From Klebsiella phage vB_KpnM_KB57, in sequence record NC_028659.1: a DNA stretch of 64,000 nt. One strand, written 5' to 3'. The translations under genes and the position numbers were made by a program. Below the pieces are notes generated by a model, which was not told the origin of the DNA, did not search any database, and saw nothing but the letters and a program-made list of their open reading frames with translations. This document shows positions 33,091 through 51,076 of the stretch, piece after piece (positions within the stretch are counted from its first letter, which is position 1; every line of letters begins with the position of its first letter).

Positions 33091-33093
33091 ATT

Positions 33094-34458: not shown

Positions 34459-34487
34459 ATACTACACTTACAGATTGTGTTTGTCAA
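34459..34487 (-). promoter_or_regulatory. sigma70-like promoter (minus strand) for coiled-coil gene
   Basis: On the minus strand, TTGACA - 17 nt - TAGTAT about 30 nt upstream of the ATG at 34427. Confidence 0.4.
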
Positions 34488-34838: not shown

Positions 34839-34874
34839 TTAAGCTATCGCCCTGTGCCACTACGCGAGCCGGGC

Positions 34875-34918
34875 CAGCAAGAACGGGAGTCGAACCCGTA
34901 TCTCTCTCATTTCAAACT
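34875..34918 (-). pseudogene. tRNA 3'-half remnant (T-arm + acceptor strand)
   Basis: ACGGG-UUCGACU-CCCGU T-arm followed by a 7-nt acceptor-like strand, but no matching 5' half before the next tRNA. Confidence 0.3.
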
Positions 34919-34994
34919 TGGTGGGGCATGAAGGATTCGAACCTTCGACCTTCGGCTTAAGGGGCCGCTACACTAACCGCTGTGTTAATACCCC
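34919..34994 (-). tRNA. tRNA-Lys (CTT)-like (C33)
   Basis: Acceptor GGGGUAU/AUGCCCC, disc A + CCA; T-arm GAAGG-UUCGAAU-CCUUC; anticodon stem CGGC/GCCG with loop CCCUUAA. Confidence 0.4.
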
Positions 34995-35055
34995 GAAAAC
35001 ATGCCCGTGTTTTTAAAGACGTTTCACGGAATCGTCATTCCCCATGCCGGAGAAA

Positions 35056-35367
35056 TTACTTTTTCTTCTTACTCTTCGTGGCTACGGTTTCAACAACCTT
35101 AGTTTCCTTTACCTTACCAGCACGTTCACGCTTGGTCTTGCCTGTGCGGATGCGGTAAGAAGCAGAGATAATCTGACCACCTTCAATCCGGGTTTCGGAT
35201 TTATACTCTCCTTTACGGCGATCGAAAACTGATACGGTTTTCTCTACACCACCGAGACGCACATCGTGCGGCGCAGAATGAGTCTGAGTAGACTTCGACT
35301 CAAACTGGAAAGGCTGTTTGATAGCGTCGATGGCGGATACTTTCTTAGCAGTATTTTTCTTAGTCAT
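35056..35367 (-). CDS. basic Lys-rich protein (possible nucleic-acid-binding)
   Basis: 103 aa with a KKKK tail and many Lys/Arg residues. Confidence 0.35.
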   Translation of the reverse strand: MTKKNTAKKVSAIDAIKQPFQFESKSTQTHSAPHDVRLGGVEKTVSVFDRRKGEYKSETRIEGGQIISASYRIRTGKTKRERAGKVKETKVVETVATKSKKKK

Positions 35368-35459
35368 AATTTTCTCCTTTGCATTTTATTTGGGAATTTG
35401 TCCCGTTTATGTTCATGAGGATACTAACTCAATCAGATATCCTCGTCAACATTTTTAAT

Positions 35460-35537
35460 TGGTGGCCCCCGGAGGATTCGAACCTGCCTACCTCTCGATT
35501 ATGAGTCGATTGCTCATACCTAATGAGCTTGAGGGCT
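35460..35537 (-). tRNA. tRNA-Met (CAT), initiator-like unpaired 1:72
   Basis: Anticodon loop CUCAUAA; acceptor 5' AGCCCUC vs 3' GGGGGCC leaves an A1xC72 mismatch; CCA encoded. Confidence 0.45.
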
Positions 35538-35539
35538 TA

Positions 35540-35612
35540 TCGTTCAGAGTGGAATTGAACCACTGACCTTGTCCGTATGAAGAACCTGCTCTACCAACTG
35601 AGCTACTGAACG
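35540..35612 (-). tRNA. tRNA-Met/Ile2 (CAT), no encoded CCA
   Basis: Canonical D-arm GCUC-AGUUGGUA-GAGC, anticodon loop UUCAUAC, T-arm AGUGG-UUCAAUU-CCACU. Confidence 0.5.
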
Positions 35613-36994: not shown

Positions 36995-38674
36995 TTACAG
37001 TTGAGCGGCTGCGCGTTCACGAATCGTTGTCAGATCTTCATCGACAATAAGTTTACCGTTGTAGAACACACGACGCAGTTCGTTATCGTCAGACTGTACA
37101 TCTTCAAGCTGACAATTGTCAATCAGTTCTAACTGACCGAACATGTTGCGAACAACTTTGAGGAAACCTTTCGCAGATTTCTTACTGAGGTCGGTCTTAG
37201 GCTCTTTGACAACCATGATTTGCTGACCATCAATAACAGCGCCAGTTGCTTTCACAGCCATACCCAGTGAATCACGGGTTGTGTACTGGGTGGTAAAGGA
37301 ACCAACACCGTACACGATATTGCTGGATGCAAAGCCTTTATCTCTCAGACGTTCAAAGATGTCTTTTGCACGCGCGACAGTGATAGAATCACCGTAGATC
37401 AGACCAATATGACTATCAAGAACCTTATAGCCCTTGGAATTAACTTCACCACCGAAAATATCCCATAAACATTGGACTGCACCTACAGCTTCATGGTAAG
37501 GAACTTCATCTGTTTCATCAATAACATCAAAACCTGAAGACTGCTTGACACGATAGAACTTACCAAGAACCTGAACAAGTTCATATCCGGCTTCCGCATT
37601 GGCATCATAAGCTTCTTCAAAGCTTGCATAATCACCGCCATCTGTGTAGTAACCAGCAATGATATGCTCAGGGACACCGGAGTCCGGGCGGAATACAACA
37701 CGTCCATCGCGAGCCATGATTTCCTGTTTCAGGATCGCTGCTGCTTTGGTGATAATCGCCCAGAAGTCATAACTGTCTGCCACGTAGGAAACAAAACCTT
37801 TAGGGAAAATTTCCGTAATGTAGCGTTTCATGAATTCAACTTCAGCCAAGAAACGTGCTTCGTCCAGAGTCAGTTCCGGGTGTTCACCTTGTAGGCGACC
37901 GACGATAAATCCGATGTTCGTGGTTGCAACAGAGTGTTCAGATGCAGGAATAGAACCAGCAACGAACTTGCCTTTCATGTTGTAATAACGACGAGCATAC
38001 AGAATCGCTGGGATAGTGTCTGTACCCATAGAGTTGATCAGTTGACCGAATTCGCTCTGTGCTGCGTCGTGAGTACCAGCTTCACCGCGATATGCGAAGC
38101 AGTGGTTCTGGAATGCAACATGGTCGTTGTTATCACAGGTCTCAGCAGCCCATTTTTCAGACAGCTTGCGATACTGCCAGAACGTCGTTGCAGTTGTGAT
38201 AGTTTTCCAAGTTTCTGCGGAGATCACACTTTCCAGGAAGTTAGGCAACCAGTAAAAATCCGGGTGCGTATTCTGGATTGTAAACATTGGGACCTGAACC
38301 GGAGAAAGAGTTCCTTCTGGAAGAGCACGGATTTCCAGAGGAAGATAACCGAGATCATGAAGAGCCTCAAAGCCCCAGGTTTCTACCATGCCAATGCCGA
38401 TGCTGGAGTCGCAAACCTCACGATAATCAGCAACCGCTTCTTCTTTCGGGAGGTTGAAGAAGTTATTGTTGAACATGTCGATAAGGAACCACTTAATAAA
38501 TCCCTGAAGGCCAGCAAACATGACACGCTGGTCGTTATCAGCGAAGTGGATGAAGTGCTTCGCATTACGAGGGGTCATGTTATCCTGAACAATTTCAGAA
38601 CGTTTATCATACATGGAGATATGTGAAGGTTTGTAAAAGTCAGCGAACAGGATAGGACTTTCTTGATTAAGCAT
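36995..38674 (-). CDS. nadV: nicotinamide phosphoribosyltransferase (NAMPT/NadV)
   Basis: 559 aa from MLNQESPILFADFYKPSH (AAGGAG SD). NAMPT-like N-terminal signature FADFYK..H and a long conserved body; adjacent to a PRPP synthetase gene. Confidence 0.65.
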   Translation of the reverse strand: MLNQESPILFADFYKPSHISMYDKRSEIVQDNMTPRNAKHFIHFADNDQRVMFAGLQGFIKWFLIDMFNNNFFNLPKEEAVADYREVCDSSIGIGMVETWGFEALHDLGYLPLEIRALPEGTLSPVQVPMFTIQNTHPDFYWLPNFLESVISAETWKTITTATTFWQYRKLSEKWAAETCDNNDHVAFQNHCFAYRGEAGTHDAAQSEFGQLINSMGTDTIPAILYARRYYNMKGKFVAGSIPASEHSVATTNIGFIVGRLQGEHPELTLDEARFLAEVEFMKRYITEIFPKGFVSYVADSYDFWAIITKAAAILKQEIMARDGRVVFRPDSGVPEHIIAGYYTDGGDYASFEEAYDANAEAGYELVQVLGKFYRVKQSSGFDVIDETDEVPYHEAVGAVQCLWDIFGGEVNSKGYKVLDSHIGLIYGDSITVARAKDIFERLRDKGFASSNIVYGVGSFTTQYTTRDSLGMAVKATGAVIDGQQIMVVKEPKTDLSKKSAKGFLKVVRNMFGQLELIDNCQLEDVQSDDNELRRVFYNGKLIVDEDLTTIRERAAAQL

Positions 38675-38735
38675 GTTTTGTTTCTCCTTTGTTTGTTTAA
38701 TAGGGCGATTGTACGCCCACTTATTCATTTGTCAA

Positions 38736-39536
38736 TTAAAAGTTTTCGGTCCAGTCGTGGTACGCGTAGATTTCATCAACGCCGCCTTCGTAGATAACTT
38801 CTTTACCGAAGGAAAAGATACCGTGAGTTACGTAAAGAATAACACGTTTTGCTCCTTTTGCCTTCAATGCTTGTGCCAGGGCGATGAATGTGCGACCACC
38901 ATCGCAGATATCATCGACAATAACACACTCGCGGCCTTCAACATCACCGAAAACAGCAGTCCCGGTAATTTCATTTGTCTTCAGATCGCGCACTTTTCCA
39001 GCTTCCACCAGAGGGAGGCGGAGACGATCGGAAACTTTCTGAGCTTTTTTACGTGCTCCGGCGTCAGGTGCCACGATAACAACATCTTTTCCAACCAGGC
39101 CTTCATGGAATTCCGCAATAAGAGCATCCTGACCACGAATTTTAACGTTGTTAAGCAACGCAGCAGAGACATCGCTGTGCGGATCATCGACAATGACCTT
39201 GTCAAACCCAAGAGAGTTGACGATATTTGCGAAAACTTTGATGGATAACGCTTCACCAGGTTGCATTACGCGGTCCTGACGTGCATATGGGATGTACGGC
39301 AAGTGCAAAGTGAACTGTGCAGTATGATGGAGGCCTTCAAGGCGAGAACATGCATCAACCAACATGGCAAGTGCCATAACATCAGTAGAATTTTTAATTT
39401 TCGCAGTGATGTCTACGAAACCAATACCACCTTTCGGGGTATGCGCCATATCGATTCTAACCTGTTCTTCACCACCTTTGAACGTAAAGTGATCGACAGG
39501 AACTACCAGTTTGTTCAGACGAAGTTCTAAACTCAT
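38736..39536 (-). CDS. prs: ribose-phosphate pyrophosphokinase (PRPP synthetase)
   Basis: 266 aa; PRPP-binding loop VIVDDICDGGRT and the overall Prs layout. Confidence 0.6.
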   Translation of the reverse strand: MSLELRLNKLVVPVDHFTFKGGEEQVRIDMAHTPKGGIGFVDITAKIKNSTDVMALAMLVDACSRLEGLHHTAQFTLHLPYIPYARQDRVMQPGEALSIKVFANIVNSLGFDKVIVDDPHSDVSAALLNNVKIRGQDALIAEFHEGLVGKDVVIVAPDAGARKKAQKVSDRLRLPLVEAGKVRDLKTNEITGTAVFGDVEGRECVIVDDICDGGRTFIALAQALKAKGAKRVILYVTHGIFSFGKEVIYEGGVDEIYAYHDWTENF

Positions 39537-39907
39537 TTCATATATCCTCTATTAACAATTATGTAATGTCTAGGTTTTGCATTCCCATTTGAATCCTGAA
39601 AACCAGAACGTATCCTTCGAATGTATCCAAGAGACTCCATCTTTGTCAAGAACTCTGATACTTTCGGTTGTGACTTTTCGCTCAACCCAAACAGATGACA
39701 CAAAGATTTTTGAGATGGGTAAAAAACTTCATCGCCACCATCTGGGTTTAGACTCTTGAAGTAATCATACCTCCACCAAAGCTTGATTAATCTTTGCAAA
39801 TCTTGGGGTGAGAGACGATCATCAAAAAGCCACTGCGTCGGAATGGTGACATATGCCCCATCTCTGATATTCACAGTGTTGTCACCAATCTTTATCTCCA
39901 CCACCAT
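39533..39907 (-). CDS. hypothetical protein, possible winged-helix regulator
   Basis: 124 aa; first gene of the minus-strand transcription unit, next to the operator-like palindromes. Confidence 0.25.
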   Translation of the reverse strand: MVVEIKIGDNTVNIRDGAYVTIPTQWLFDDRLSPQDLQRLIKLWWRYDYFKSLNPDGGDEVFYPSQKSLCHLFGLSEKSQPKVSEFLTKMESLGYIRRIRSGFQDSNGNAKPRHYIIVNRGYMK

Positions 39908-39974
39908 CTCCTATTTATTCCGCGATAGGTATAATTAGAGCCTACACCACTAAATCAATACTGTCAACTCTAAT

Positions 39975-40016
39975 TATTCCCGATTAGGAATATCTAATTA
40001 TTCCCGAAAAGGAATA
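39975..40016. promoter_or_regulatory. tandem operator-like palindromes TATTCCcgNNNNGGAATA x2
   Basis: tattcccgattaggaata and tattcccgaaaaggaata, 6-bp inverted arms with a 6-nt spacer, 24-bp periodicity, in the divergent intergenic region. A third palindrome agagtataaatactct lies at about 40099-40115. Confidence 0.4.
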
Positions 40017-40177
40017 CAATACTAACTTATCATTTAAACTAACTTATGATCTTTAAAAACAATAAAACATAAGATCTAAAACAAGATCTTTTACTACAGA
40101 GTATAAATACTCTATATCATAGAGTCGGTGACTCGATGAGTTGGATTATCGTATGAAGAAAAGATGATGTCAAGTGT

Positions 40178-40205
40178 TGACATGAAATTTTTAACGTGTA
40201 GAATC
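40178..40205 (+). promoter_or_regulatory. sigma70-like early promoter for plus-strand operon
   Basis: TTGACA - 16 nt - TAGAAT, about 25 nt upstream of the AAAGGAGATTGTT SD and start. Confidence 0.5.
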
Positions 40206-40229
40206 TAGGTAATGTTAAAGGAGATTGTT

Positions 40230-40553
40230 ATGTTTTCAAGTAAAGAAACAAAAGTTATCGGTGAAATGGTCTGTGGTAAGCCACGACGGAAACCGGAGCA
40301 GACCGATGAAGAGAATACCAAGTTGATGATGATACGTGAAGTGTATCATGAATGTGGTGAAGACCACAATGTGTGCGTGGTATTACCAGATGGTATACCT
40401 GTTGACAAGTTCTTCGATAACTTCTATGCTTCAATAAAGTCGAGACTAGCTCGACGTAATGTGTGTGTAACATATTCAAAGGACTTGACTGTGGAACACA
40501 TCGAGAACAACATTGTTGTGGTGGATCTAAGTGAAATCCATGTAACGCTCTAG
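40230..40553 (+). CDS. hypothetical early protein
   Basis: ORF-track frame; the internal ATG at 40230 has a strong SD (the annotated first ATG is at 40212). Confidence 0.35.
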   Translation: MFSSKETKVIGEMVCGKPRRKPEQTDEENTKLMMIREVYHECGEDHNVCVVLPDGIPVDKFFDNFYASIKSRLARRNVCVTYSKDLTVEHIENNIVVVDLSEIHVTL

Positions 40554-40670
40554 AACGTGTTCTAAGGCGTTTTAATGGTGTGGTAGTACACTTGGGTTAC
40601 CAACCCATATTAAATTAAATACAGGGCCTCCCAGAGGCTCTGAGAGGTATTGTGGAGGATTATTTTGGAT

Positions 40671-40940
40671 ATGAAGAGCATTACCCGTGATGACTCCATC
40701 TATAAAGGTGCTTATCTAGCTCTGAGAGACATCATGAAGTCTATGGAGAAAAAGTATGGTGTGAAACTGTACTTAGATAGCCGGGTAGACTGGGGAAAGA
40801 CATGGATGGATGCTTCAGTTTACATTCATGGTGATAGGCATATCGTTAACCTGGTGTGTATGAAACTTATTGTGTGGCAGCATTACCAGAAAATAAGGGA
40901 TGGAATTCTTTTCGCCTACCCCGCTGAGGATATGAAATGA
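40671..40940 (+). CDS. hypothetical protein
   Basis: ATG with GGAGGA upstream; 89 aa. Confidence 0.3.
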   Translation: MKSITRDDSIYKGAYLALRDIMKSMEKKYGVKLYLDSRVDWGKTWMDASVYIHGDRHIVNLVCMKLIVWQHYQKIRDGILFAYPAEDMK

Positions 40941-41221
40941 AGAAAGATATCAAGAAACCTGTCAAGGAAAAGTTTGATACCTCTGCATTTGTGTTCACAA
41001 CCGATGTGGGTGTGATTAAAGATGCTCTACAGCAACTGCATGAACAGGAGGAAGACCGTGAATCGGAACCACTAACAAGGGATCAGATCTATTGGATGGG
41101 TTGGTGGGAGCTTAACATGCCGGAGGTTGATCGTCGCGGGTTAACACATGTATTGACATGTGCTCAGGAAAATGCTGCACTGGGTCTGTATAAGAAAACT
41201 ACGAAGAGGAAGAAAAAATGA
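40937..41221 (+). CDS. hypothetical protein
   Basis: 94 aa; ATGA overlap coupling. Confidence 0.3.
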   Translation: MKKDIKKPVKEKFDTSAFVFTTDVGVIKDALQQLHEQEEDRESEPLTRDQIYWMGWWELNMPEVDRRGLTHVLTCAQENAALGLYKKTTKRKKK

Positions 41222-41457
41222 GCAGACTTGCAAAACTAAACAGAAGAAAGAAAATGTTGAAAGAGAAGCAGAAAAACATCACGGCTACTTTCCAAGTATG
41301 CCGAGAGGCTATGAAGGCAAATTTGATAACACCTTCGCAGAGACAGTTGATCCGTGATATTCTTCGTCCTGTACTCCACGACCTTGAAGGTGAAGTTCGT
41401 GATGTTACACTTCATATTCAAGAGGAACTTGTAAAAAGATATCAGGAGGATACATGA
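41218..41457 (+). CDS. hypothetical protein
   Basis: 79 aa, basic N-terminus. Confidence 0.3.
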   Translation: MSRLAKLNRRKKMLKEKQKNITATFQVCREAMKANLITPSQRQLIRDILRPVLHDLEGEVRDVTLHIQEELVKRYQEDT

Positions 41458-42047
41458 TCGACCACGTCACGTCAGACACGCATTGGTGGCATACCAACAT
41501 CCTTGGTTTCCCATCGTGTGATAAATTCCGTAAGAACCTGTACGGTCCAAAAGAAGACCGTGAAAGTCTGTATGCCATGAATGCAGGCATGATTGAAATC
41601 TGGAATAAGCACGTCAAACCAGATGATGTCGTAGCACATCTTGGTGATTTCGTGATTGCTTACGGACGCTATATTGAGCCTCGTGTTCGTGACATCCTTG
41701 AAAAGATCAACGGAAAGATCATTCTCGTTGGTGGAAATCACGATAACCGTGATACGAAACGTATCTTCCGTGAGTTTGGTCATGAAGTTGTTGATTATAA
41801 AGAGATTGACTTTAGCACAGGGAAAGAGAAGGTGCGGGTATGTATGTCTCACTATCCGTTTGCATCGTGGAACAAAGCACACCACGGGTCAGTTATGTTG
41901 CACGGGCATAGCCACGGCTCCTATACGGCCCCTGGTGGACGTATTCTGGATGTTGGCTGGGATGTACATGGTCGTCCTCTTACGATGCGTGAAGCCGTCC
42001 TGATGTGCCTCAAAAAACCAATCTACACTGCTGACCACGGAGAATAA
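41454..42047 (+). CDS. calcineurin-like metallophosphoesterase (Ser/Thr or polynucleotide 2',3'-phosphatase)
   Basis: Motifs HLGDF (GDxx), VGGNHDNRD (GNHD), LHGHSHGS (GHxH); 197 aa. Confidence 0.55.
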   Translation: MIDHVTSDTHWWHTNILGFPSCDKFRKNLYGPKEDRESLYAMNAGMIEIWNKHVKPDDVVAHLGDFVIAYGRYIEPRVRDILEKINGKIILVGGNHDNRDTKRIFREFGHEVVDYKEIDFSTGKEKVRVCMSHYPFASWNKAHHGSVMLHGHSHGSYTAPGGRILDVGWDVHGRPLTMREAVLMCLKKPIYTADHGE

Positions 42048-42048
42048 G

Positions 42049-42405
42049 ATGCATAACAAAGAACGGAATTTCATAGCACGTAACACGGCGAAGTCTTTCT
42101 TCGCCACTATTCATATCGCCGGGGACTATACTCAGGCAAAGAATCTTTGTCGTCAGTGGGTTATGCAAGGTGCTTGTGTGCAGATTTCCCCATGCACTTA
42201 TATCTACACAGGCGGTGCGGAAGAGGGTATGACTGTTCGGTTAATGCAGTATCCGCGTTTCCAGAGAACTGAGATTGAAATCCTTGAGATGGCTCGGGAG
42301 TTGGGAACTTACCTCGCTCAAGAGCTTTGCCAGATCAGTTTCAGTATTGAAACACCTTACAATACCACTTATTACCAAGCTGAGGGATACGATAAGCGCT
42401 CATGA
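42049..42405 (+). CDS. hypothetical protein
   Basis: 118 aa; SD GGAGAATAAG. Confidence 0.3.
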   Translation: MHNKERNFIARNTAKSFFATIHIAGDYTQAKNLCRQWVMQGACVQISPCTYIYTGGAEEGMTVRLMQYPRFQRTEIEILEMARELGTYLAQELCQISFSIETPYNTTYYQAEGYDKRS

Positions 42406-42605
42406 AAATACACAACATAACCAAAGACAGGATTCATTTCATAATGGATTCAGGAGCTTACGGATCTATCTCCAAGGCAGATGCCATGAAATTTCTGTAT
42501 GCTTCAAATATTCCTCAGGCAAAGCTTGACTCCCGTTCAGGAGAGTGTATTATTGACTCTATCACGAATATACAAGACCTGTGGGAGATATATCATGAAG
42601 TTTAA
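42402..42605 (+). CDS. hypothetical protein
   Basis: 67 aa. Confidence 0.25.
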   Translation: MKIHNITKDRIHFIMDSGAYGSISKADAMKFLYASNIPQAKLDSRSGECIIDSITNIQDLWEIYHEV

Positions 42606-43557
42606 TGTTGACGATCTGGTCGCTAAAAATCTGGTAACCAAAAAGACTTACACCGAAGGCCCGTTCGCGGGTCTGTCTGTGCTGAAGTATAAGAACAATG
42701 TGTTCTGGGATAACCTGTGGCATACTGACCCACGCCTGCTTGAGTGCCGTGGCATGGTTGTTGATTCAGAAGACAACGTGATTATCTGGCCTTTCACTAA
42801 GATTTTCAACCGCTTCGAGAATGGAACTGACCTTCCTCTTGACAAACCGGTTGTTTGTTCCCGCAAGGTCAATGGTTTTATGGCCACAGCGGCAATACAC
42901 AAAGACAAGCTCCTCGTTTCAACAACAGGGACATTGGATTCTGAGTTTTCAGAATTGGCTCGTAAGTACCTCGAAAAAATGAATTTTGATCTGATTTCTT
43001 TCCGTGAAGATTACACTTTCATTTTCGAAATATGCGATAGCAGCGACCCACATATTGTGGAAGAGAAAGAAGGTGCTTATCTGATTGGTGTCCGTGACCT
43101 CGCTTTAAACGGTGTTATGGTTGAAGAGCACAAACTTGATCGCATCGCTGAAGTGATCGGTGCAAAACGTCCTCAATGGGATGTCCGTGCATTTGGCGAT
43201 GTCGTTGCAGCCAGTCATGCTGTTAGCCACGAAGGTTTTGTTGTCCGAAATATCGGGACAGATGACGAAAATAGCGAACTACTTTTGAAAATCAAGTCCC
43301 CACATTACCTGGCGAAGAAATTCCTGATGCGTGGAGGTGATAACAAGTGGGATATGATCTGGGATAACCCGAAAGAGGCCAAGAAGCGTATTGACGAAGA
43401 GTATTACGAGTTGCTAGACCATATTCGTGAGTATTACTCTAAAGATGTTTGGTCCGCGATGGATTCTCAAAAACGACGTCAGGTTGTTGAAGATTACTTC
43501 GCTATCGAAGACATGTTTGATCGTGGTAGTCGTTTTTATGTTGGGGTTCCAAAATGA
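42595..43557 (+). CDS. RNA ligase (Rnl2-like nucleotidyltransferase ligase)
   Basis: Start at MKFNVDD (GGGAGA SD). Motif I RKVNGF (KxNG as in Rnl2 KIHG), motif III-like FIFEICD, motif IV HEGFVVRN, motif V LLLKIK. Confidence 0.5.
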   Translation: MKFNVDDLVAKNLVTKKTYTEGPFAGLSVLKYKNNVFWDNLWHTDPRLLECRGMVVDSEDNVIIWPFTKIFNRFENGTDLPLDKPVVCSRKVNGFMATAAIHKDKLLVSTTGTLDSEFSELARKYLEKMNFDLISFREDYTFIFEICDSSDPHIVEEKEGAYLIGVRDLALNGVMVEEHKLDRIAEVIGAKRPQWDVRAFGDVVAASHAVSHEGFVVRNIGTDDENSELLLKIKSPHYLAKKFLMRGGDNKWDMIWDNPKEAKKRIDEEYYELLDHIREYYSKDVWSAMDSQKRRQVVEDYFAIEDMFDRGSRFYVGVPK

Positions 43558-43898
43558 TTATCTGGCTTGATGACCTGAGAGATCCAAAAGACTACGGGTA
43601 TCCTGATGCCTTGTGGTTCAAGACCTCTCAGAAATTTATGGACTTTCTGGACAACAGGTCAAAGTTCTATCGTTATGTCACAGAGTGGCATTTCGATAAT
43701 GACCTTGGGGAAGGGTCAGAAATGGAGGGCTATGACTGCCTGTTGGCCTTGGAAGAGAAGCTTGTGTATGGAAAACTTCCTGTGCATGATGCTAAACTCT
43801 ATGTCCACACGTCTAACCCTTCTGCGGCACAAAAGTTCATGCTTGCAAAAGAGAGCTTCTTGAAGTATCGTATCACGATCTTAAGAAACAATTACTGA
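43554..43898 (+). CDS. hypothetical protein
   Basis: 114 aa. Confidence 0.3.
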   Translation: MIIWLDDLRDPKDYGYPDALWFKTSQKFMDFLDNRSKFYRYVTEWHFDNDLGEGSEMEGYDCLLALEEKLVYGKLPVHDAKLYVHTSNPSAAQKFMLAKESFLKYRITILRNNY

Positions 43899-43907
43899 GG
43901 AGAAGAG

Positions 43908-44312
43908 ATGGAAAAGACTCTGATTATCCTGCGTGGTGTGTCTGGTGCGGGTAAGTCTACAGTTGCTGAGACAATCGCTGGTAAAGCATGGCCTGTGTTT
44001 GAGGCCGATAAATACCATTATCGGGACGGGGTTTACGACTGGAAGCCTGAAAACATGGCTGTTGCTCATAAGTGGTGTCAAGAACAGGTACGTGAGGCTA
44101 TGGTGTGCCGTATTGCAAAAATTATCGTATCCAACACTTCGACAACAGAGAAGGAACTAAAACCCTACATTGCCCTTGCTGATGAGCACGGATACCAAGT
44201 TATTAGCTTGGTGGTCGAGAATAGGCATGGTAATGATTCTATTCACAATGTTCCGCAGGAAACTCGTGATGCTCAAGAGCTTCGTCTGCGTAACTCATTG
44301 AAATTACAGTAA
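43908..44312 (+). CDS. P-loop polynucleotide kinase-like protein
   Basis: Walker A ILRGVSGAGKST at the N-terminus; 134 aa, Pnk kinase/AAA_33-like size. Confidence 0.45.
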   Translation: MEKTLIILRGVSGAGKSTVAETIAGKAWPVFEADKYHYRDGVYDWKPENMAVAHKWCQEQVREAMVCRIAKIIVSNTSTTEKELKPYIALADEHGYQVISLVVENRHGNDSIHNVPQETRDAQELRLRNSLKLQ

Positions 44313-44320
44313 GGAAAGAT

Positions 44321-44545
44321 ATGTATAAAGGAAATAACCTACGGGAATCGTTCGAAAATTGGTGGGACTCTCTTAGCGATCCTTGGTCAACACCAGAAGC
44401 AAAATCTGCTGCATGGGAAGCCTGGAAGTTTTCAAATTTACGAGTTCTTAATAAAATTCGTTATATGAAAGGTATTACCGAGCGGTGCAATGGTTATAAT
44501 GAGGCTATGAATGAGATAAATAATGTTATAGGGGAAAATCCATGA
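44321..44545 (+). CDS. hypothetical protein
   Basis: 74 aa. Confidence 0.25.
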   Translation: MYKGNNLRESFENWWDSLSDPWSTPEAKSAAWEAWKFSNLRVLNKIRYMKGITERCNGYNEAMNEINNVIGENP

Positions 44546-45318
44546 GACGTCTTATCGTTATAAGTGGTGCTGGCTTCTCTGCGGAGAGTGGTGTACGTAC
44601 ATTCCGCACAGATACTGAATCTGGTAAAGCCCTGTGGGATGAATACGACCTTGAGGAGGTTTGTAACATACACGCCTTCCGTGGTAACTTCTACCATAAA
44701 ACGCACATGTTTTATAACAAGCGTCGTGCAGAGTTACCAACGGTACATCCGAATGCGGCGCATCTTCGCGTGGCTGAGTGGTACAGACGTTATCCTGGGC
44801 AGGTTGTTAACATGACAACTAACGTTGATGACCTTCTGGAACGTGCGGGTGTCCCTAAAGAAGATACTCTTTACATCCACGGGTATCTGAAAGAAATTCG
44901 ATACAAGCTCCATGAAGATTCTGAAGAGCAGTTGGTTGACATCGGTTACGATGAGGTAGACCCCGACCAATTTCATTGGTGTAAACCAAACGTAGTTTTC
45001 TTTGGTGAGAATGCTCCGGCCTATGGCCCTATGAATGATACCTTGGAGTCATTGACAAATCAGGATCTTGTAATTGTTGTAGGCTGTTCAAATACAGTTA
45101 TTAACTTCAACTGGGAGTTGTTCCCTGCGGTTATGCGGGGGACCAAAGTTGTTGTTGTTAATCCTGCTATTAGGTATGATGAACAAATGATGTATGAGAA
45201 TGCGGGTGTTCTTGTATATCGTACCGGAGCTGTTGATGCCTTTAATAATCCAGGCCTTATCAAGATAGTTGAGAATCACCTTGAAGGTAAGACACCATTG
45301 CAAAGCAAGGAGAAATAA
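44542..45318 (+). CDS. Sir2-family NAD-dependent deacylase / ADP-ribosyltransferase
   Basis: Sirtuin Rossmann signature ISGAGFSAESGVRTFR (GAGxSxxSGIPxFR), NVDDLLE and VVVNP motifs; 258 aa. Confidence 0.6.
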   Translation: MRRLIVISGAGFSAESGVRTFRTDTESGKALWDEYDLEEVCNIHAFRGNFYHKTHMFYNKRRAELPTVHPNAAHLRVAEWYRRYPGQVVNMTTNVDDLLERAGVPKEDTLYIHGYLKEIRYKLHEDSEEQLVDIGYDEVDPDQFHWCKPNVVFFGENAPAYGPMNDTLESLTNQDLVIVVGCSNTVINFNWELFPAVMRGTKVVVVNPAIRYDEQMMYENAGVLVYRTGAVDAFNNPGLIKIVENHLEGKTPLQSKEK

Positions 45319-46631
45319 TGCAACAAGTAAACAGTACACTGTACGCCCTTAATAAAGATGGTTCTTTCCAGTGTTGGAAGGTGTTTATTGCTGGTAATCA
45401 GGTAGTTGTAGAGTTTGGCAAGGTTGGTGGTAAGAAGCAACAAAAGGTTACCACCTGTGAACCGAAGAACGTTGGACGTTCTAACGAAACCACCGCAGAA
45501 CAGCAGGCATTGGCTGAGGCGGTTTCCAAATGGGAGAAACAGGTTCGCCTTGGATATCGTGACGATACAAGTAAGCTTGAGCAGGAAGAGAACTTCTCCC
45601 CAATGCTGGCCCATGATGCAACTAAACGTTCAAAATCAATAGTTTATCCTGCATACGTGCAACCTAAGCTCGATGGTGTACGTGCTCTGGTTACTCTTGA
45701 TGCAGATGGCTTCCCACAATTCAATAGCCGTGGTAACAAACTGTATCCTGTACCGCTTGATTCTGAGTTGTCTGAACAGGTTAAATCCCTTTCTGAGCAT
45801 TCAGGGTTTGACAAATTCGATGGGGAGCTGTACATTCATGGTCTGAGTCTGCAAAAGATTGTCGCTCTTGCTAAGAAGTGGCGTACACCAGAGCAGATCG
45901 AGGAAGAGATTGAAAAGGATTATCAGTCTGACCTGAAGCGCCATCAGAAAGCTATTGACAATGGGGAAGACAGTTGGAAAGATTTCGATGGTGATGTTTA
46001 CTCTGTCGCGATCGAACCAGTTAAAGATGTTGATCGTTATGGCGGCTATTCAAGCCTTGACCTAGAGTACCATATCTTTGACATTCCGTGTTCAAATAAA
46101 CCCTGGATGATTAACGATGGGATTTCAGACTATACAGATAAGGAGTGTCGATACAAAGACCTTATGGACACTGACCACTTCACCTCTGTTATTAAAGCAG
46201 ATAAAATAAATGTGGTCCAAGGTAATGTCTTTGACACTGAGGATGAGGTTAAGCAATCAATCGGACATTTTATGCAGCAAGGCTTTGAGGGTGCTATCAT
46301 CCGAAATTTCAAAGGTGTCTATGAATTTGGTCAGCGATCTTCTGATCTCCAGAAATGGAAACTTTTCCAAGACGGCGAGGCTAAAGTCCTTGATTCTGTG
46401 GAAGATAAGAACGGTGAGGGTGTATTACTCTGCGAAGAGAAAGATGGTACACGTTTCAACTGTAAAATGAAGGGAACCCACGCAGAGAGATCTCAGGAAC
46501 GAATGCTCCTGCTGGTGGGTAAGTTTATTAACTTCACGTTCCAAGCTAGAACTGATGATGGTGTTCCTCAGTTCCCTGTGGGCCAAAGCGTTCGTGAACT
46601 CGATACATTAACATGGGAGCCTGTATACTAA
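45318..46631 (+). CDS. ATP-dependent DNA ligase
   Basis: Motif I KLDGVR, motif III FDGELYIHG, motif IV EGAIIRN, motif V LQKWK; 437 aa. Confidence 0.65.
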   Translation: MQQVNSTLYALNKDGSFQCWKVFIAGNQVVVEFGKVGGKKQQKVTTCEPKNVGRSNETTAEQQALAEAVSKWEKQVRLGYRDDTSKLEQEENFSPMLAHDATKRSKSIVYPAYVQPKLDGVRALVTLDADGFPQFNSRGNKLYPVPLDSELSEQVKSLSEHSGFDKFDGELYIHGLSLQKIVALAKKWRTPEQIEEEIEKDYQSDLKRHQKAIDNGEDSWKDFDGDVYSVAIEPVKDVDRYGGYSSLDLEYHIFDIPCSNKPWMINDGISDYTDKECRYKDLMDTDHFTSVIKADKINVVQGNVFDTEDEVKQSIGHFMQQGFEGAIIRNFKGVYEFGQRSSDLQKWKLFQDGEAKVLDSVEDKNGEGVLLCEEKDGTRFNCKMKGTHAERSQERMLLLVGKFINFTFQARTDDGVPQFPVGQSVRELDTLTWEPVY

Positions 46632-47092
46632 TGGGATTTTATCGTAAAAAACCTGTAGAGGTTGAAGCACATAAGTTTGACGGGTCGTCAACCAGCGCAG
46701 GGCAGATCCATAATTGGATGGAAACTGGTGTGTGGAAGGATTCCGAAATCCACACTCGTGATTGTGGTCGTACTGTAGAGATAAAAACCCCAGAGGGTGT
46801 GGTTGTAGCCTCTGCTGGGGATTATGTAATTAAAGGGGTGGCTGGAGAATTCTATCCTTGCAAATCAGAAATTTTCCATGCAACATATGACCCGCTGGAA
46901 GACACTGATCGGGAACCTGGGAACTACCCAGCTAAAGCAATCCGTAAGGGTGATGAGATCATGTTTTGCGGAAAGGTTTATACCGTAACGAATACTGGTG
47001 CGATGGGGGAGGATGTTATCCTGACTCTCGGTGATGGTTCCCAAATCCCTGTGCGCCCTGATACTCAAATTATCGTAACAAAGGCACAGTAA
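46631..47092 (+). CDS. hypothetical protein
   Basis: Start at MGFYRKKP (TAATG overlap with ligase). Confidence 0.3.
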   Translation: MGFYRKKPVEVEAHKFDGSSTSAGQIHNWMETGVWKDSEIHTRDCGRTVEIKTPEGVVVASAGDYVIKGVAGEFYPCKSEIFHATYDPLEDTDREPGNYPAKAIRKGDEIMFCGKVYTVTNTGAMGEDVILTLGDGSQIPVRPDTQIIVTKAQ

Positions 47093-47093
47093 A

Positions 47094-47444
47094 ATGATCT
47101 GGTATTGGCTGGCGCTACTAGGCGCATCATTTGTAACAGGAGGCGGCATTTATGCCGCTTACAGATTCCGAAAAGATAAGTTGGATGATTTCTTTGACTG
47201 GGTTGCTGGAAAGGTTAAACGTCTGCTGATCATCTGGGTATTTGTTATGGGCCTTGTTACGCTGGCCCTTACTGTCCCATTATGGCATACTATGACTTGT
47301 CAGTTCGACGGCTGGGCCGCGAATACAGAGACCAGTTATTCATGGTACAAATCAACCTGCCTGTATAAAAGCAAGACAGGGGCATGGCTACCTTTAGGTA
47401 TCAGTCGTGATCAACCGCAAGGAGATGGTGATGCATCAAATTAA
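47094..47444 (+). CDS. membrane protein (2 TM)
   Basis: MIWYWLALLGASFVTGGGIYAAY and LLIIWVFVMGLVTLALTV hydrophobic helices. Confidence 0.35.
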   Translation: MIWYWLALLGASFVTGGGIYAAYRFRKDKLDDFFDWVAGKVKRLLIIWVFVMGLVTLALTVPLWHTMTCQFDGWAANTETSYSWYKSTCLYKSKTGAWLPLGISRDQPQGDGDASN

Positions 47445-47685
47445 AGAAAATACTGTAGATTTTGAAGCGCATATCTACGATTCTGCGATGAACGACAACT
47501 ACAGATGGTCAATTCGTCCAGATCCTGATCTGCCAGGTTCAGTTAATCTTTCTTACAATGAGTTAGCTCATTATGACAACCGTTCTCGCCAAGGCTATGA
47601 GCAGCGAGGTATGGTAGGTTTCGATAAAGAAACTTGGGAAAAAATTAAATACGCCATCGATGGTGTTTTTGAAAAAACAATTTAG
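47431..47685 (+). CDS. hypothetical protein
   Basis: ATG with GGAGATGGTG SD. Confidence 0.3.
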   Translation: MHQIKENTVDFEAHIYDSAMNDNYRWSIRPDPDLPGSVNLSYNELAHYDNRSRQGYEQRGMVGFDKETWEKIKYAIDGVFEKTI

Positions 47686-47693
47686 GAGATTTA

Positions 47694-48359
47694 ATGAAAG
47701 AAGCTTACGAAACCCTCAACTCAATGCTGCGCCCAACCTCCCTTGTTAAGTATGCGAAACATGTGGTAGATTGGAATTCTATCGCAGCTTCTGCAAAGGG
47801 TGAATTTACCCCATTGGAAAAGCAGTGGGAGTTTGTCGGAGAGGAGTTAGAAGAAACCGTTAAGGCATTAGCCGAAAATGACCGTAAGGAAGTCATTGAT
47901 GGGGCATGTGACTTGTTTGTTGTAGCGTCGTATGCTTATTGGTTGAGTAATAACCATTCACTATCCTTAAATTATAACCCTGATCTTAAGTTTTCGCTTG
48001 GTAAAGCTTTGGATGCTTTTGCGAATGAAGACTACGAAGAAATGCTTAAATTGAGCACAGCTTTGTTGTTTGGTATTGATATGCAATTGGATAAGAACAT
48101 GAGTAGCGTTCTTGAGTCTAACGATTCTAAATATCCAACACTTAACGAAGTTCAGTCTTTGCATAAAGATCTTGACTTGGTAAAAGCCCTTGAGGCAGAA
48201 TGCGCCTGTATCGAACGGCGTAACGGTGGACGTTATGAAGGTGTTCATTTCTCGATTGTTGATGGGAATATGAAAGAAGAGCCTCGTGTCGTATTCTTCG
48301 ACAAAGGTGGTAAAATCATGAAGCCTGGAACTTTCAAAAAGCCAAACATTATTGTTTGA
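47694..48359 (+). CDS. MazG-like nucleotide pyrophosphohydrolase (putative)
   Basis: WEFVGEELEETVKALAEN...EVIDGACDLFVV resembles the MazG/all-alpha NTP-PPase EExxE...D metal-binding helix pair. Confidence 0.35.
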   Translation: MKEAYETLNSMLRPTSLVKYAKHVVDWNSIAASAKGEFTPLEKQWEFVGEELEETVKALAENDRKEVIDGACDLFVVASYAYWLSNNHSLSLNYNPDLKFSLGKALDAFANEDYEEMLKLSTALLFGIDMQLDKNMSSVLESNDSKYPTLNEVQSLHKDLDLVKALEAECACIERRNGGRYEGVHFSIVDGNMKEEPRVVFFDKGGKIMKPGTFKKPNIIV

Positions 48360-48378
48360 CAATCGCATCGGGGTCTGT

Positions 48379-48636
48379 ATGATGACCCCATCAAGACAAA
48401 AGGAGAACGAAGTGGAAGAAAATATTGATTATTCTGAAATTGTTGCCTTAGCTAATCGCCTTAAAATTACCATCATGAATCGCGGGGCATCTTCCCGTCA
48501 TGTTATCCGCTTCACGATGAAGCGTCGTTGGGGCGGCGTAAAGAAATACGCTTATGAATGCACACTCGGCACACTGGTATCTCATGTCAACCAGATCGAG
48601 AGAATGGGCGGAAAAATTGTCGGCATTGACAATTGA
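48379..48636 (+). CDS. hypothetical protein
   Basis: ORF-track frame; internal ATG-ATG chosen as start. Confidence 0.25.
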   Translation: MMTPSRQKENEVEENIDYSEIVALANRLKITIMNRGASSRHVIRFTMKRRWGGVKKYAYECTLGTLVSHVNQIERMGGKIVGIDN

Positions 48637-48639
48637 AGC

Positions 48640-48668
48640 TTGACAAATAAAACTGAACGGTTATACTG
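48640..48668 (+). promoter_or_regulatory. sigma70-like promoter
   Basis: TTGACA - 16 nt - TATACT upstream of the AAAGGAG SD and ATG at 48699. Confidence 0.45.
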
Positions 48669-48698
48669 ACCACACTAAACCAAACAAAGGAGCAATAT

Positions 48699-49058
48699 AT
48701 GCCACGTATGCCAAAAATCAAAATCGAACTGATCACCTCTCTGCCGTCTGACCCAGTTCAGCGTAAACGCCTGAAAGATAGCGTAACTGAAGTGGTTGAT
48801 CTCCAGCGTCAAATCGCTGATCTGAAAGACCAGATCAAAGACATTCGCTCTGTGGAGAAAGAGACGCATAATATCTCTCCAAAATTCTTCAATAGTTTGG
48901 TGAAGCGCGAGTATGATGTTCGCTTCGAAGCCGAAAAGAAAACTGCTGCATTAGAGGCTGAAAAAGAAGTCTTCACCGAGGCAGACATTCTGTTTGGTCG
49001 TGGAACCCCAAATGTTGCACAGACTGAAGCCGATGATGGTGCTGAGGACACTGAATAA
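48699..49058 (+). CDS. hypothetical protein
   Basis: 119 aa, acidic C-terminus. Confidence 0.3.
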   Translation: MPRMPKIKIELITSLPSDPVQRKRLKDSVTEVVDLQRQIADLKDQIKDIRSVEKETHNISPKFFNSLVKREYDVRFEAEKKTAALEAEKEVFTEADILFGRGTPNVAQTEADDGAEDTE

Positions 49059-49258
49059 TGAAATACTACCTGAATGGTGTTGGCCTGTTTGTCTTCATCT
49101 GTGTCGTATTCGGGTTTGGTGTTCCAACTCTGGTGTCTGCCAAAGATACAATTAGTGTTATTGGCGGGTTTACCTTAGTCTTCACTGCCCCGGTTGTCGT
49201 GTGGTACTGGTTGCGTAAGGTCTTCATTCCGAAGATAAGCGCTGAAGGAGATCGATAA
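49058..49258 (+). CDS. small membrane protein (2 TM; holin-like topology)
   Basis: GVGLFVFICVVFGFGV and VIGGFTLVFTAPVVVWYW hydrophobic segments; 66 aa. Confidence 0.3.
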   Translation: MKYYLNGVGLFVFICVVFGFGVPTLVSAKDTISVIGGFTLVFTAPVVVWYWLRKVFIPKISAEGDR

Positions 49259-49413
49259 TGTTGCTAAATCTGAAGGCTGCAACTTGGGAAAAGTTGCAGC
49301 ACTTGGCAAAGTCCAAAGGTAAGTCTGCGGCATCTTATGTTGCAAAAATCGTAGATGACCACGTTGATGAAAACGTAAAGACTGAGTATAAAATCAAAGA
49401 GGAGAAACAAACT
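49258..49413 (+). CDS. ribbon-helix-helix (Arc/CopG-like) DNA-binding protein
   Basis: 51 aa MLLNLKAATWEKLQHLAKSKGKSAASYVAKIVDDHV: beta strand plus two helices typical of RHH; TAATG coupling. Confidence 0.4.
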
Positions 49414-49414
49414 A

Positions 49415-50305
49415 ATGCTTAAGAATATCAAACGCGTAGTATTTGCTGGTCTGATCGCCCTGGGTGCAATTGGTCTGACTGGTTGTGAACGTGCAACTGT
49501 TCCGGCGGGTTATGTGGGCGTTAAGGTTGACCTGTATGGTGATGAGAAAGGCGTTCAGCAGCAAGAAGTTGGCGTTGGTAAGTATTGGTTAACCTGGAAC
49601 GAAGAGATCTATCAGTTCCCGACGTTCAACCAGTTGAACAACTACGAACAACCGTTTAACTTCCAGACCAAAGATTCTATGACGGTTACTGCGAAGATCG
49701 GTGTTGAGTATTACGTTGACCGCTCTAAGGTTACCAAGATCTTCCAGACCTACCGTAAAGGCGTCCAGGAGATTACCGATGTCAACATTCGTCAGAATAT
49801 CTCTGATGCGTTGATCAAGGAAGCGGGTACAATGGACATTGGTACACTGGCTGGTGATGGTAAATCTCAGCTTCTGGACCGAGTGACCAAGACCCTGAAG
49901 CAGAAACTTGACCCGGTAGGTATCGTTATTGTGAAACTGTCTTACACTGATGACCTTGGTTATCCTCCTCAGGTAACTGCGTCCATCAACGCTAAGATCG
50001 AAGCGACTCAGAAAGCGCTGCTGCGTGAAAACGAAATCCAGCAGACTAAAGCTGAAGCTCAGAAACAAATTGAAGCAGCTCGCGGTGAAGCAGAATCCCA
50101 GCGACTGCAAGCTCAGGGCCAGGCAGATGCTAAAGTAGCTCTGGCAAAAGGTGAAGCAGAATCCATCCAACTGCGTGGTGATGCTCTCCGTAAGAACCCT
50201 GAAATCATGCAACTGGAAGCGATCAACAAGTGGGACGGTAAAACCCCGACCATTATGGGTGGCAACGGTGCAGTACCTTTCGTAAATCTGCCAGCAGGTA
50301 AGTAA
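49415..50305 (+). CDS. SPFH/band-7 (stomatin/HflKC-like) lipoprotein
   Basis: Lipobox LTGC after a signal peptide; band-7 core followed by a long Ala/Glu/Gln coiled-coil (EAQKQIEAARGEAESQRLQAQGQADAKVALAKGEAESIQLRG). Confidence 0.5.
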   Translation: MLKNIKRVVFAGLIALGAIGLTGCERATVPAGYVGVKVDLYGDEKGVQQQEVGVGKYWLTWNEEIYQFPTFNQLNNYEQPFNFQTKDSMTVTAKIGVEYYVDRSKVTKIFQTYRKGVQEITDVNIRQNISDALIKEAGTMDIGTLAGDGKSQLLDRVTKTLKQKLDPVGIVIVKLSYTDDLGYPPQVTASINAKIEATQKALLRENEIQQTKAEAQKQIEAARGEAESQRLQAQGQADAKVALAKGEAESIQLRGDALRKNPEIMQLEAINKWDGKTPTIMGGNGAVPFVNLPAGK

Positions 50306-50308
50306 AGG

Positions 50309-50337
50309 TTGACAAAAGGCCCGGTGATTAGTATCAT
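50309..50337 (+). promoter_or_regulatory. sigma70-like promoter
   Basis: TTGACA - 17 nt - TATCAT, about 30 nt upstream of the AAAGGAGA SD and ATG at 50368. Confidence 0.45.
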
Positions 50338-50367
50338 CGGGTCTCTACTTACAAAAGGAGATACACA

Positions 50368-50562
50368 ATGATCCGCACAAAAATTCTTATCGCAGCATTG
50401 CTGCTCTCTTCTCCGGTATTCGCAACTGTAAACACTCTCGATTTGGTTGATGAATATACCAACGGCAGCTCTAAGGTCTGCGTTTACAGCGACGGTCATC
50501 GAACAGAGACTGTAACAAAAGATGGCGCTGGTTCTTGTCCAAGTAAGAAAACATTTCATTGA
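50368..50562 (+). CDS. small secreted protein with signal peptide (64 aa)
   Basis: MIRTKILIAALLLSSPVFA signal peptide; two Cys in the mature part. Confidence 0.35.
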   Translation: MIRTKILIAALLLSSPVFATVNTLDLVDEYTNGSSKVCVYSDGHRTETVTKDGAGSCPSKKTFH

Positions 50563-50569
50563 GGGAATA

Positions 50570-51076
50570 ATGCGAGTAACTGATAAATACGTCTTTTTCT
50601 TCACTTACCGGGATATGTTCAGTAATCACTACCGCCAAGTTATTCCTATTCGTTGTGGTGGTTACGAGTTTTTCACTGTAGAACATTACATGATGTTCCA
50701 GAAGGCAATGCTCTTCGATGACAAAGAAATTGCTTCCCGTATCGCTACGGTTGATAACCCTAATGAGGCCAAAGCTCTTGGTCGTCAGGTAAAAGGTTTC
50801 GACAACAGCGTCTGGGAAGAAAATAGAATGGATATAGTGACTTCAGGTCTTGTATTGAAAATGAAGGCCAACAGATCTGTTCTCGAAGCTGCTCTTGGGC
50901 ATCGAGATGCTGGGCGTAAGTTTGTGGAAGCCTCCCCTTATGATGCCATCTGGGGTGTTAAATTAAACGAATATGACACACGTATCGATGACCCAACCAA
51001 CTGGCGTGGTTTGAATCTTCTCGGTAAGTGCTGGGAACGAGCTATTGATATTGTTGTTGCTGCAACGTGGAGGTGA
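50570..51076 (+). CDS. NADAR-domain protein (YbiA/DUF1768-like; ADP-ribose-processing glycohydrolase family)
   Basis: FFFTYRDMFSNHY...GGYEFFTVEHYMMFQKAMLFDD...WGVKL matches the YbiA-like NADAR pattern (FFxxxxxFSNF...FxSxEHYxQxxKA...WG); GAGGGAA SD. Confidence 0.5.
   Translation: MRVTDKYVFFFTYRDMFSNHYRQVIPIRCGGYEFFTVEHYMMFQKAMLFDDKEIASRIATVDNPNEAKALGRQVKGFDNSVWEENRMDIVTSGLVLKMKANRSVLEAALGHRDAGRKFVEASPYDAIWGVKLNEYDTRIDDPTNWRGLNLLGKCWERAIDIVVAATWR

Follow-up and report, generated by a model that had tools for sequence, protein, structure and literature searches.

Three separate NAD+- and ADP-ribose-related functions in Klebsiella phage vB_KpnM_KB57, including a probable complete NARP1 operon

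Does a phage that carries a Prs-like gene beside a NAMPT-like gene, with no NMNAT in sight, possess a broken route to nicotinamide adenine dinucleotide (NAD+)? The question is raised by positions 36995 to 51076 of Klebsiella phage vB_KpnM_KB57 (NC_028659.1), which were analyzed within a 64,000-nucleotide (nt) stretch of one strand, called the window here, to which all scans were limited. A sequence-only reading had joined the gene pair with a sirtuin (Sir2) gene and a NADAR gene into one set and had judged the pathway incomplete. Our analysis indicates that the region very probably contains three distinct phage functions, each described before, and not one incomplete NAD pathway, the pair at 36995-39536 on the minus strand forming a complete NARP1 operon. 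This conclusion draws on the families and diagnostic residues of the proteins, on their near-identity with catalogued entries, and on gene context.

Pfam scans with curated cut-offs covered the region with its flanking genes and 63 further open reading frames (ORFs) across the window. The profile searches that the sequence-only reading had proposed (NAPRTase, Pribosyltran, SIR2, and NADAR) assigned the listed ORFs as expected, and the four genes belong to the NAPRTase, Prs, SIR2, and NADAR families as named, all above the Pfam cut-offs. The reported arrangement also stands: the NAMPT-like and Prs-like genes are neighbors on the minus strand, and the Sir2 and NADAR genes, which had been placed within the next 12 kb, lie about 5 kb and about 11 kb further on, both on the plus strand. 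The sirtuin motif that had been cited, GAGFSAESGVRTFR, is present in the N terminus of the protein encoded at 44542-45318 (+). No CTP_transf_like/NMNAT domain was detected in the region genes or in the 63 other ORFs, in agreement with the reported lack of an NMNAT in the window; the suggested search for an NMNAT or Nudix gene, which covered the window, found neither domain there. The gene pair and the gene upstream of it are as follows.

36995..38674, minus strand: probable Namat (nicotinamide ADP-ribose transferase), 559 amino acids, second NARP1 enzyme; Pfam NAPRTase, 96 bits; mechanical ORF 36995-38728
38736..39536, minus strand: probable Adps (ADP-ribose pyrophosphokinase, Prs-like), 266 amino acids, first NARP1 enzyme; Pfam Pribosyltran_N, Pribosyltran, and Pribosyl_synth above cut-offs
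39533..39907, minus strand: small gene of 124 amino acids; phrog_8453; weak DnaD-like and HTH_36 matches; shares 4 nt (ATGA) with the Adps start

The window belongs, on nucleotide identity, to a Klebsiella Mydovirus. The 2.5-kb stretch with both focal genes is 98.7% identical at the nucleotide level to Klebsiella phage vB_KpnM_NDO71, 98.3% identical to vB_KpnM_BIS47 (Vequintavirinae, Mydovirus), and 93 to 97% identical to other Klebsiella and Proteus Mydoviruses.

The same two-gene operon, under the same Pfam names and in BASEL phages, was the starting point of Osterman et al. (bioRxiv 10.1101/2024.02.11.579819). In that work, the operon of Bas63 gave escape from SIR2-HerA even in a host with a double deletion of pncC and nadR. 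Purified Adps of SPbetaL1 converted ADP-ribose (ADPR) and ATP to ADPR-PP, formed no Prs-type product, and was judged not to be a Prs, and Namat produced NAD+ from ADPR-PP and nicotinamide, with ADPR-PP preferred over phosphoribosyl pyrophosphate (PRPP). NARP1 overcame Thoeris, DSR1, DSR2, SIR2-HerA, and SEFIR and is present in 859 phage genomes, and the validated operons work as two genes alone.

The enzyme activities and anti-defense phenotypes of the window proteins are predicted here from such homologues. Adps, a truncated and rewired Prs homologue, would take the beta-gamma pyrophosphate from ATP and attach it to the free ribose of ADPR, giving ADPR-PP; Namat, a NAMPT homologue with an adenine-binding clamp, would let nicotinamide displace the pyrophosphate of ADPR-PP, giving NAD+. 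The substrates of NARP1, ADPR and nicotinamide, would be the leftovers of the NADase effectors SIR2-HerA, DSR1/2, type I Thoeris, and SEFIR. Because the products of these NADases are the substrates of NARP1, the phage would restore NAD+ without nicotinamide mononucleotide (NMN), NMNAT, or host salvage.

The focal pair is already catalogued by name in near-identical phages, and every component has been described before. Table S1 of Osterman et al. (Adps, Namat neighbor "Yes") and Table S2 (Namat, "Adps-associated") list BIS47, KpS8, and Proteus phage Mydo. The window Adps matches that of BIS47 (KY652726_00093) at 265 of 266 residues (99.6%), and the window Namat is 99.3% identical to its BIS47 counterpart.

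The diagnostic features of Adps are found in the window protein, which has the catalytic lysine, the acceptor-site residues, and the truncated C terminus known from NARP1. It shares 41.6% identity with the Adps of Bas63 (158 bits) and 38.9% with that of ICP1 (146 bits), compared with a score of 97 bits against E. coli Prs; the ICP1 reference is the genomic protein, which the residue numbering of the Adps structure paper (UniProt F1D1Q1) fits exactly. The PP loop (D208-F217, DDICDGGRTF) is identical to that of Bas63 and close to that of ICP1 (DDICDGAASF), while E. coli Prs reads DDMIDTGGTL; in ICP1 Adps the donor site comprises C215-S220 plus the F221 lid (PMC13586617). The catalytic hairpin lysine is K181, corresponding to K185 of ICP1 and K162 of SPbetaL1. 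Residues F19, R86, H120, D158, D208, and D209 (F18, R87, H121, D161, D212, and D213 of ICP1) are also kept, although most of them are likewise kept in Prs and do not discriminate on their own. After the THG motif, 27 residues remain in the window Adps, compared with 64 in E. coli Prs and 37 to 50 in validated Adps, and the loss of the Prs C-terminal alpha11-alpha12 module is a signature of the Adps family (PMC13586617). Further, the window protein falls below every NCBIfam Prs equivalog cut-off and is named there at the broad subfamily level only.

Similarly, the window Namat has the clamp aromatics and the core arginine of the NARP1 enzyme. In the structural work on Namat, selectivity for ADPR-PP was traced to a clamp in which a conserved helix contributes F392 and Y396, with R306 as the core catalytic residue (PMC12774641), and the mutants F392G and Y396K served to define the clamp (PMC12774641). 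The corresponding window residues are F460, Y464, and R329 (in VVFRPDSG), and the clamp-helix motif reads GSFTTQY, compared with GSFTYQY in Namat and GGGLLQE/Q in Nampt. The best PDB match is the SPbetaL1 Namat (9W5X/9W5W, E 4e-123), whereas true Nampts from Xanthomonas, human, and rodents match at E 6e-51 to 1e-46 (human NAMPT, about 1e-48). BLASTP scores were 392 bits to SPbetaL1 Namat and 383 bits to Bas63 Namat, compared with 139 and 128 bits to the NARP2-type Nampts of a KVP40-like Vibrio phage and Klebsiella phage KP15 (27 to 28% identity). A phage-wide tblastn search gave the same separation, with 32 to 48% identity to Adps-carrying phages (ICP1, Bas63 relatives, and Staphylococcus and Pseudomonas phages) and 22 to 29% to T4-like Nampts (KP15 and RB43).

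Gene context agrees with these assignments. Adps and Namat are read from one strand, the stop of the former preceding the start of the latter by 62 nt; a Namat gene stands in the immediate vicinity for 97% of the Adps clade (Osterman et al., bioRxiv 10.1101/2024.02.11.579819), and the NARP1 operons of Bas63, SPbetaL1, FADO, and ICP1 have the same Adps-then-Namat order with adjacent genes. The most likely Namat start is ATG 38674 and not 38728, because it is preceded at 8 nt by a Shine-Dalgarno sequence (AAGGAG) and because the same start is annotated in BIS47. The window differs from known NARP1 in an extra small helix-turn-helix-like gene at the Adps start and a promoter-like site between the genes. 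The latter, a near-consensus sigma-70-like site at 38708-38735 (-) with an 11/12 match (TTGACA-16-TACAAT), lies within the 62-nt gap, contains ATG 38728, and may give Namat its own promoter. The small gene at 39533-39907 is probably cotranscribed with Adps, and 72 V5-like phages have a homologue, which in several of them lies directly upstream of the Adps gene. It was rejected as a NARP1 component, since no match was found in the examined regions around NARP1 of Mydo, BIS47, Bas62, and Bas63; BIS47 and Mydo have a different small gene annotated upstream of Adps.

The names of the pair nonetheless allow the reading that a canonical Prs supplies PRPP, a canonical NAMPT makes NMN, and an NMNAT of the host or from outside the window (NadR/NadD) finishes a NARP2-like but incomplete route. 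Pfam, PHROG, and NCBIfam do read Prs and NAMPT/NAPRT, NCBIfam calling the window Namat a "nicotinate phosphoribosyltransferase" while holding no Adps- or Namat-specific model. In addition, several observations pull against our identification of the pair as NARP1. Namat enzymes retain some PRPP-dependent NMN formation in vitro (PMC12774641; Osterman et al.), which leaves a small chance of a minor NMN route. The assayed Adps enzymes come from other phage lineages and share only 30 to 42% identity with the window Adps, the figure for Namat being about 40%. The Adps of Bacillus phages score 94 and 79 bits against the window protein, no better than E. coli Prs, and membership of the Adps clade therefore rests on the published tree and not on pairwise scores. 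Clamp-loop residue R40, nonconserved by definition, is replaced by K39 in a loop 4 to 5 residues longer in the window Namat (KHFIHF; Bas63 is similar in kind, KWFNSP), and an acidic insertion of about 55 amino acids (residues 343-396) is absent from the crystallized SPbetaL1 Namat. Against a Prs/NMN route, however, stand the ADPR-PP formed by SPbetaL1 Adps with no Prs-type product and the functioning of the Bas63 operon without pncC and nadR. The window proteins themselves also speak against it: Adps fails all Prs equivalog cut-offs and is without the Prs C-terminal module, and Namat has the ADPR-PP clamp aromatics and groups with Adps-associated Namat, not with Nmnat-associated Nampt. Moreover, no phage was found with both NARP1 and NARP2 (Osterman et al.). 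We consider the Prs/NMN route extremely improbable and take the pair to be Adps and Namat.

The acidic insertion in Namat follows the PDSG motif and precedes the C-terminal half; Nampts are without it, and Bas63 Namat has a longer, dissimilar insertion in the same place.

With the pair read as NARP1, the sequence-only reading was right about the kind of module, one that reconstitutes NAD+ and counters Thoeris, DSR, SIR2-HerA, and SEFIR, while the NMN chemistry it had proposed gives way to that of Adps and Namat. Its "incomplete" pathway falls away, as NARP1 needs neither NMN nor NMNAT; it had followed the Pfam names, which are misleading for this operon according to Osterman et al. The case shows how family names can misguide pathway reasoning, since a Prs and a NAMPT without an NMNAT look broken and yet correspond to a complete, established NAD+ route. 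Klebsiella Mydoviruses are accordingly predicted, from the NARP1 identity, to resist NAD depletion of the SIR2, TIR, and SEFIR types, which is relevant to phage therapy.

Comparison with related systems narrows the type. NARP2 (Nampt plus Nmnat, Vibrio phage KVP40) resembles the window pair in restoring NAD+ from nicotinamide with a NAPRTase-family enzyme; the window enzyme differs in having F and Y where Nampts have G and E/Q, it adjoins Adps, and the window has no Nmnat. NARP1-AP (bioRxiv 10.64898/2026.01.28.702374) has the Adps and Namat core in common with the window and adds Adpp, a Macro-domain phosphatase acting on ADPR-1''P. No Macro domain was found by Pfam among the NARP1 neighbors or any other scanned ORF of the window, which therefore argues for plain NARP1 and not NARP1-AP; following the argument of the aRES paper, NAD+ degradation to ADPR-1''P by aRES (RES-domain) defense should then defeat the phage, and we predict that it stays sensitive to aRES unless another phosphatase substitutes. 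Genes for the accessory or alternative functions Nudix, RyR (RyDEP), PnuC, and NadR (NARP3) were likewise not found among the Pfam-scanned ORFs of the window.

Some irregularities were noted among the NARP1 relatives. In ICP1 isolate 2017_Dha_N, the Namat homologue beside Adps matches in two pieces in different frames, and two hypothetical proteins are annotated in its place; the gene may be broken in this isolate, or the sequence may contain an error. In the OY-series Klebsiella phage records OY757067, OY979426, and OY978784, the features annotated at the NARP1 match are unrelated (helicase, HNH, and thymidylate kinase); the annotation seems shifted relative to the sequence.

The sirtuin belongs to a different neighborhood, in which six genes on the plus strand are relevant.

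41454..42047, plus strand: calcineurin-like metallophosphoesterase; Pfam Metallophos; phrog_547, phosphoesterase
42595..43557, plus strand: T4 Rnl1-like RNA ligase; Pfam RNA_lig_T4_1; the ORF opens at 42499, and relatives start at residue 33
43554..43898, plus strand: cREC (cyclic-phosphate processing receiver-like) protein; Pfam cREC_REC PF20274, E 4e-17
43908..44312, plus strand: P-loop nucleotide/polynucleotide kinase; Pfam AAA_33; 75% identical to a Bas62 gene annotated "polynucleotide kinase"
44542..45318, plus strand: phage sirtuin (CobB-like, zinc-less), 258 amino acids; Pfam SIR2, 84 bits; phrog_2162
47694..48359, plus strand: MazG/PRA-PH-type nucleotide pyrophosphohydrolase; Pfam PRA-PH; phrog_671 and phrog_2144, MazG-like

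Iyer et al. 2022 (PMC9503650, section 3.7.3) described most viral sirtuins as a distinct clade found in conserved RNA-repair neighborhoods, with V5 and Mydo as prototypes, and predicted a KptA-like, NAD+-dependent removal of RNA 2'-phosphate by these sirtuins (PMC9503650). All six members of the neighborhood that they list are present at 41454-48359 on the plus strand, and the gene set is the same as in V5 and Mydo (PMC9503650), with no notable difference. The RNA ligase, from residue 33 on, is 99.4% identical to those of Mydo and BIS47, and the sirtuin is 59.6% identical to that of phage T5 and 92% identical to that of Mydo. The sirtuin family numbers 989 phage records, mostly T5-like, with others from V5-like, Phapecoctavirus, KVP40-like, and jumbo phages. 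By analogy, an RNA-repair role is predicted for the window neighborhood: the cluster would heal and seal RNAs, e.g., tRNAs, cut by host nucleases, and the sirtuin would spend NAD+ in a KptA-like manner to remove the RNA 2'-phosphate. PDB searches intended to tie the metallophosphoesterase and the kinase to Pnkp-type RNA-repair enzymes returned one weak match and no match, respectively, and were uninformative.

The remaining function is encoded by a stand-alone gene further to the right.

50570..51076, plus strand: stand-alone NADAR (YbiA-type), 168 amino acids; Pfam NADAR, 121 bits (cut-off, 35); mechanical ORF 50522-51076

The start at 50570, as in BIS47, is the most likely one. The protein passes TIGR02464 (126 bits; cut-off, 74) and aligns to PDB 8BAU, a NADAR domain-containing protein, at E 2e-15, with VEHYMMFQK and VEASPYDAIWG in the alignment. 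The catalytic glutamate and lysine and the acidic residue of the last strand that mark the NADAR fold are all found, with residue roles taken from the literature. Within Mydovirus the gene is variable, being 98% identical to the BIS47 copy and 57% identical to the Mydo copy; it is 40% identical (E 5e-38) to bas62_0106 of Bas62, annotated as a YbiA-like N-glycosidase. Johannesman et al. (PMC11257639) showed that phage NADARs neutralize DarT1 and restore plating on DarTG1 hosts, among them a protein common to the V5-related phages Bas60-62. The window protein resembles the anti-DarTG1 NADARs (T4 AdfN, Bas32, and Bas60-62; PMC11257639) as a stand-alone NADAR in a V5-related phage and is of the glutamate (YbiA-like) type, in contrast to T4 AdfN, which is of the histidine type. 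From these homologues, it is likely a DNA guanine-ADP-ribose glycohydrolase, and it would most likely strip ADP-ribose off guanines of the phage DNA and so counter toxins of the DarT1 type. In BIS47 (KY652726), the NADAR gene is annotated as "GTP cyclohydrolase II," probably a mistaken label inherited from RibA-NADAR fusion proteins.

The layout of the window sets these functions apart. The sign of the GC skew flips at about 40 kb; to the left, genes read leftward, among them those for structural proteins, the 25 arrayed tRNA genes, and the focal pair, and to the right, early and nucleic-acid metabolism genes read rightward. Promoter-like sequences lie at the junction.

40145..40204, both strands: divergent sigma-70-like promoter pair, 11/12 match on each strand; intergenic, with NARP1 reading leftward on one side and the early genes rightward on the other

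Promoter-like sites in total were not more frequent than in shuffled sequence, and the pair is therefore only suggestive. NARP1 is on the minus strand, and the sirtuin neighborhood and NADAR are on the plus strand, with the divergent promoter-like sites between them. In Bas62, Sir2 and NADAR lie about 33 kb and about 59 kb from NARP1, and neither turned up in that half of the Bas63 genome in which NARP1 is located. The Adps, Sir2, and NADAR families also differ strongly in the host genera of the phages that carry them: this Sir2 occurs mostly in T5-like phages, while Adps is frequent in phages of Staphylococcus, Pseudomonas, and Mycobacterium. NARP1, the sirtuin neighborhood, and NADAR are thus most probably separate and not one module. 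The earlier grouping of Sir2 and NADAR with the pair is not supported, given the other strand, the different neighborhoods and phage distributions, and the interpretations already published for each.

An integrated NAD+/ADP-ribose module would nevertheless make chemical sense: RNA repair by Sir2 would free nicotinamide and ADP-ribose 1'',2''-cyclic phosphate, cREC and the metallophosphoesterase would convert the latter to ADPR, NARP1 would recycle the products, and NADAR would add ADPR from DNA. Enzymes that feed ADPR are known as accessories (e.g., the Macro phosphatase Adpp and the RyR glycosidase RyDEP), and ADPR-cyclic phosphate (ADPR>P) also arises by ADPR-PP breakdown. Further, and against a strict separation, NARP1 stands divergently beside a phosphoesterase/RNA-ligase/kinase cluster in Bas62 as it does here. 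Because this adjacency is conserved, we allow a small chance of metabolic coupling between NARP1 and the RNA-repair enzymes through the recycling of ADPR>P and nicotinamide. A single module, however, is very unlikely: Sir2 and NADAR of Bas62 are tens of kilobases from NARP1, most phages with this Sir2 (T5-like) are without Adps and most Adps phages are without this Sir2, the validated NARP1 operons suffice as two genes, and the roles of the sirtuin, cREC, and phosphoesterase are putative. A related proposal for V5-like phages, which is something of a long shot, is a closed NAD+ cycle in which the sirtuin spends NAD+ on RNA 2'-phosphates, cREC and/or the metallophosphoesterase (as a non-Macro equivalent of Adpp) yield ADPR, and NARP1 rebuilds NAD+; if true, such a cycle would also shield V5-like phages from aRES-type defense. 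The RNA-repair role of the sirtuin is itself a published prediction, and a literature search for a characterized phage sirtuin of this clade returned only annotation or modeling papers besides that of Iyer et al. The sirtuin might instead be an ordinary CobB-type lysine deacylase (possibly a desuccinylase) that reprograms host or phage proteins, or an NADase, unrelated to RNA repair. E. coli CobB gives its best PDB match (1S5P, E 6e-21), and GAGxSxxSGxxTFR, FYNKRR (the class III YxxR), TTNVD (TxNxD), the catalytic histidine in IHG, and FGE all align, so that the NAD-binding motifs, catalytic histidine, and YxxR are kept; a 2016 modeling study of a related Vibrio-phage Sir2 also argued for deacetylase function. 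We regard this as a less probable but serious alternative. The zinc-binding cysteines of CobB are missing, with a single cysteine in that region; the protein scores 114.5 bits against a CobB equivalog cut-off of 243 and lies below all other NCBIfam CobB models; in three neighborhood types, a conserved association with RNA ligase, cREC, kinase, and phosphoesterases suggests RNA-end chemistry; and an NADase would oppose the phage's own NARP1. As for NADAR, identity to the BASEL protein that was tested is only 40%, and the window protein also scores above the cut-off of a model for N-glycosidases of riboflavin intermediates, so that a small-molecule N-glycosidase is conceivable in place of the DNA glycohydrolase that we favor.

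Other features of the window touch these functions by position. Sequence divergence from Mydo and BIS47 is mosaic at 44542-46631 and 50570-51076, amid neighbors that are otherwise 97 to 100% identical; the DNA ligase in 44542-46631 is 84 to 86% identical to those of Mydo and BIS47, and Sir2 is 92% identical to its counterparts in both. This pattern suggests allele replacement at the Sir2, DNA ligase, and NADAR loci. Between the RNA-repair cluster and NADAR, an SPFH/Band 7 protein of 296 amino acids (49415-50305, plus strand), whose N terminus resembles a lipoprotein signal (GLTGCE), is unusual cargo. The array of 25 tRNA genes (28892-35612, minus strand) lies directly downstream of NARP1, with small ORFs interspersed as in Mydo, and includes two ARAGORN calls with irregular anticodon loops. 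Finally, a nucleotide-precursor block at 57149-62757 on the plus strand encodes a ThyX-type thymidylate synthase, the large and small subunits of a class I ribonucleotide reductase, and a glutaredoxin, and is ordinary for phages of such size.

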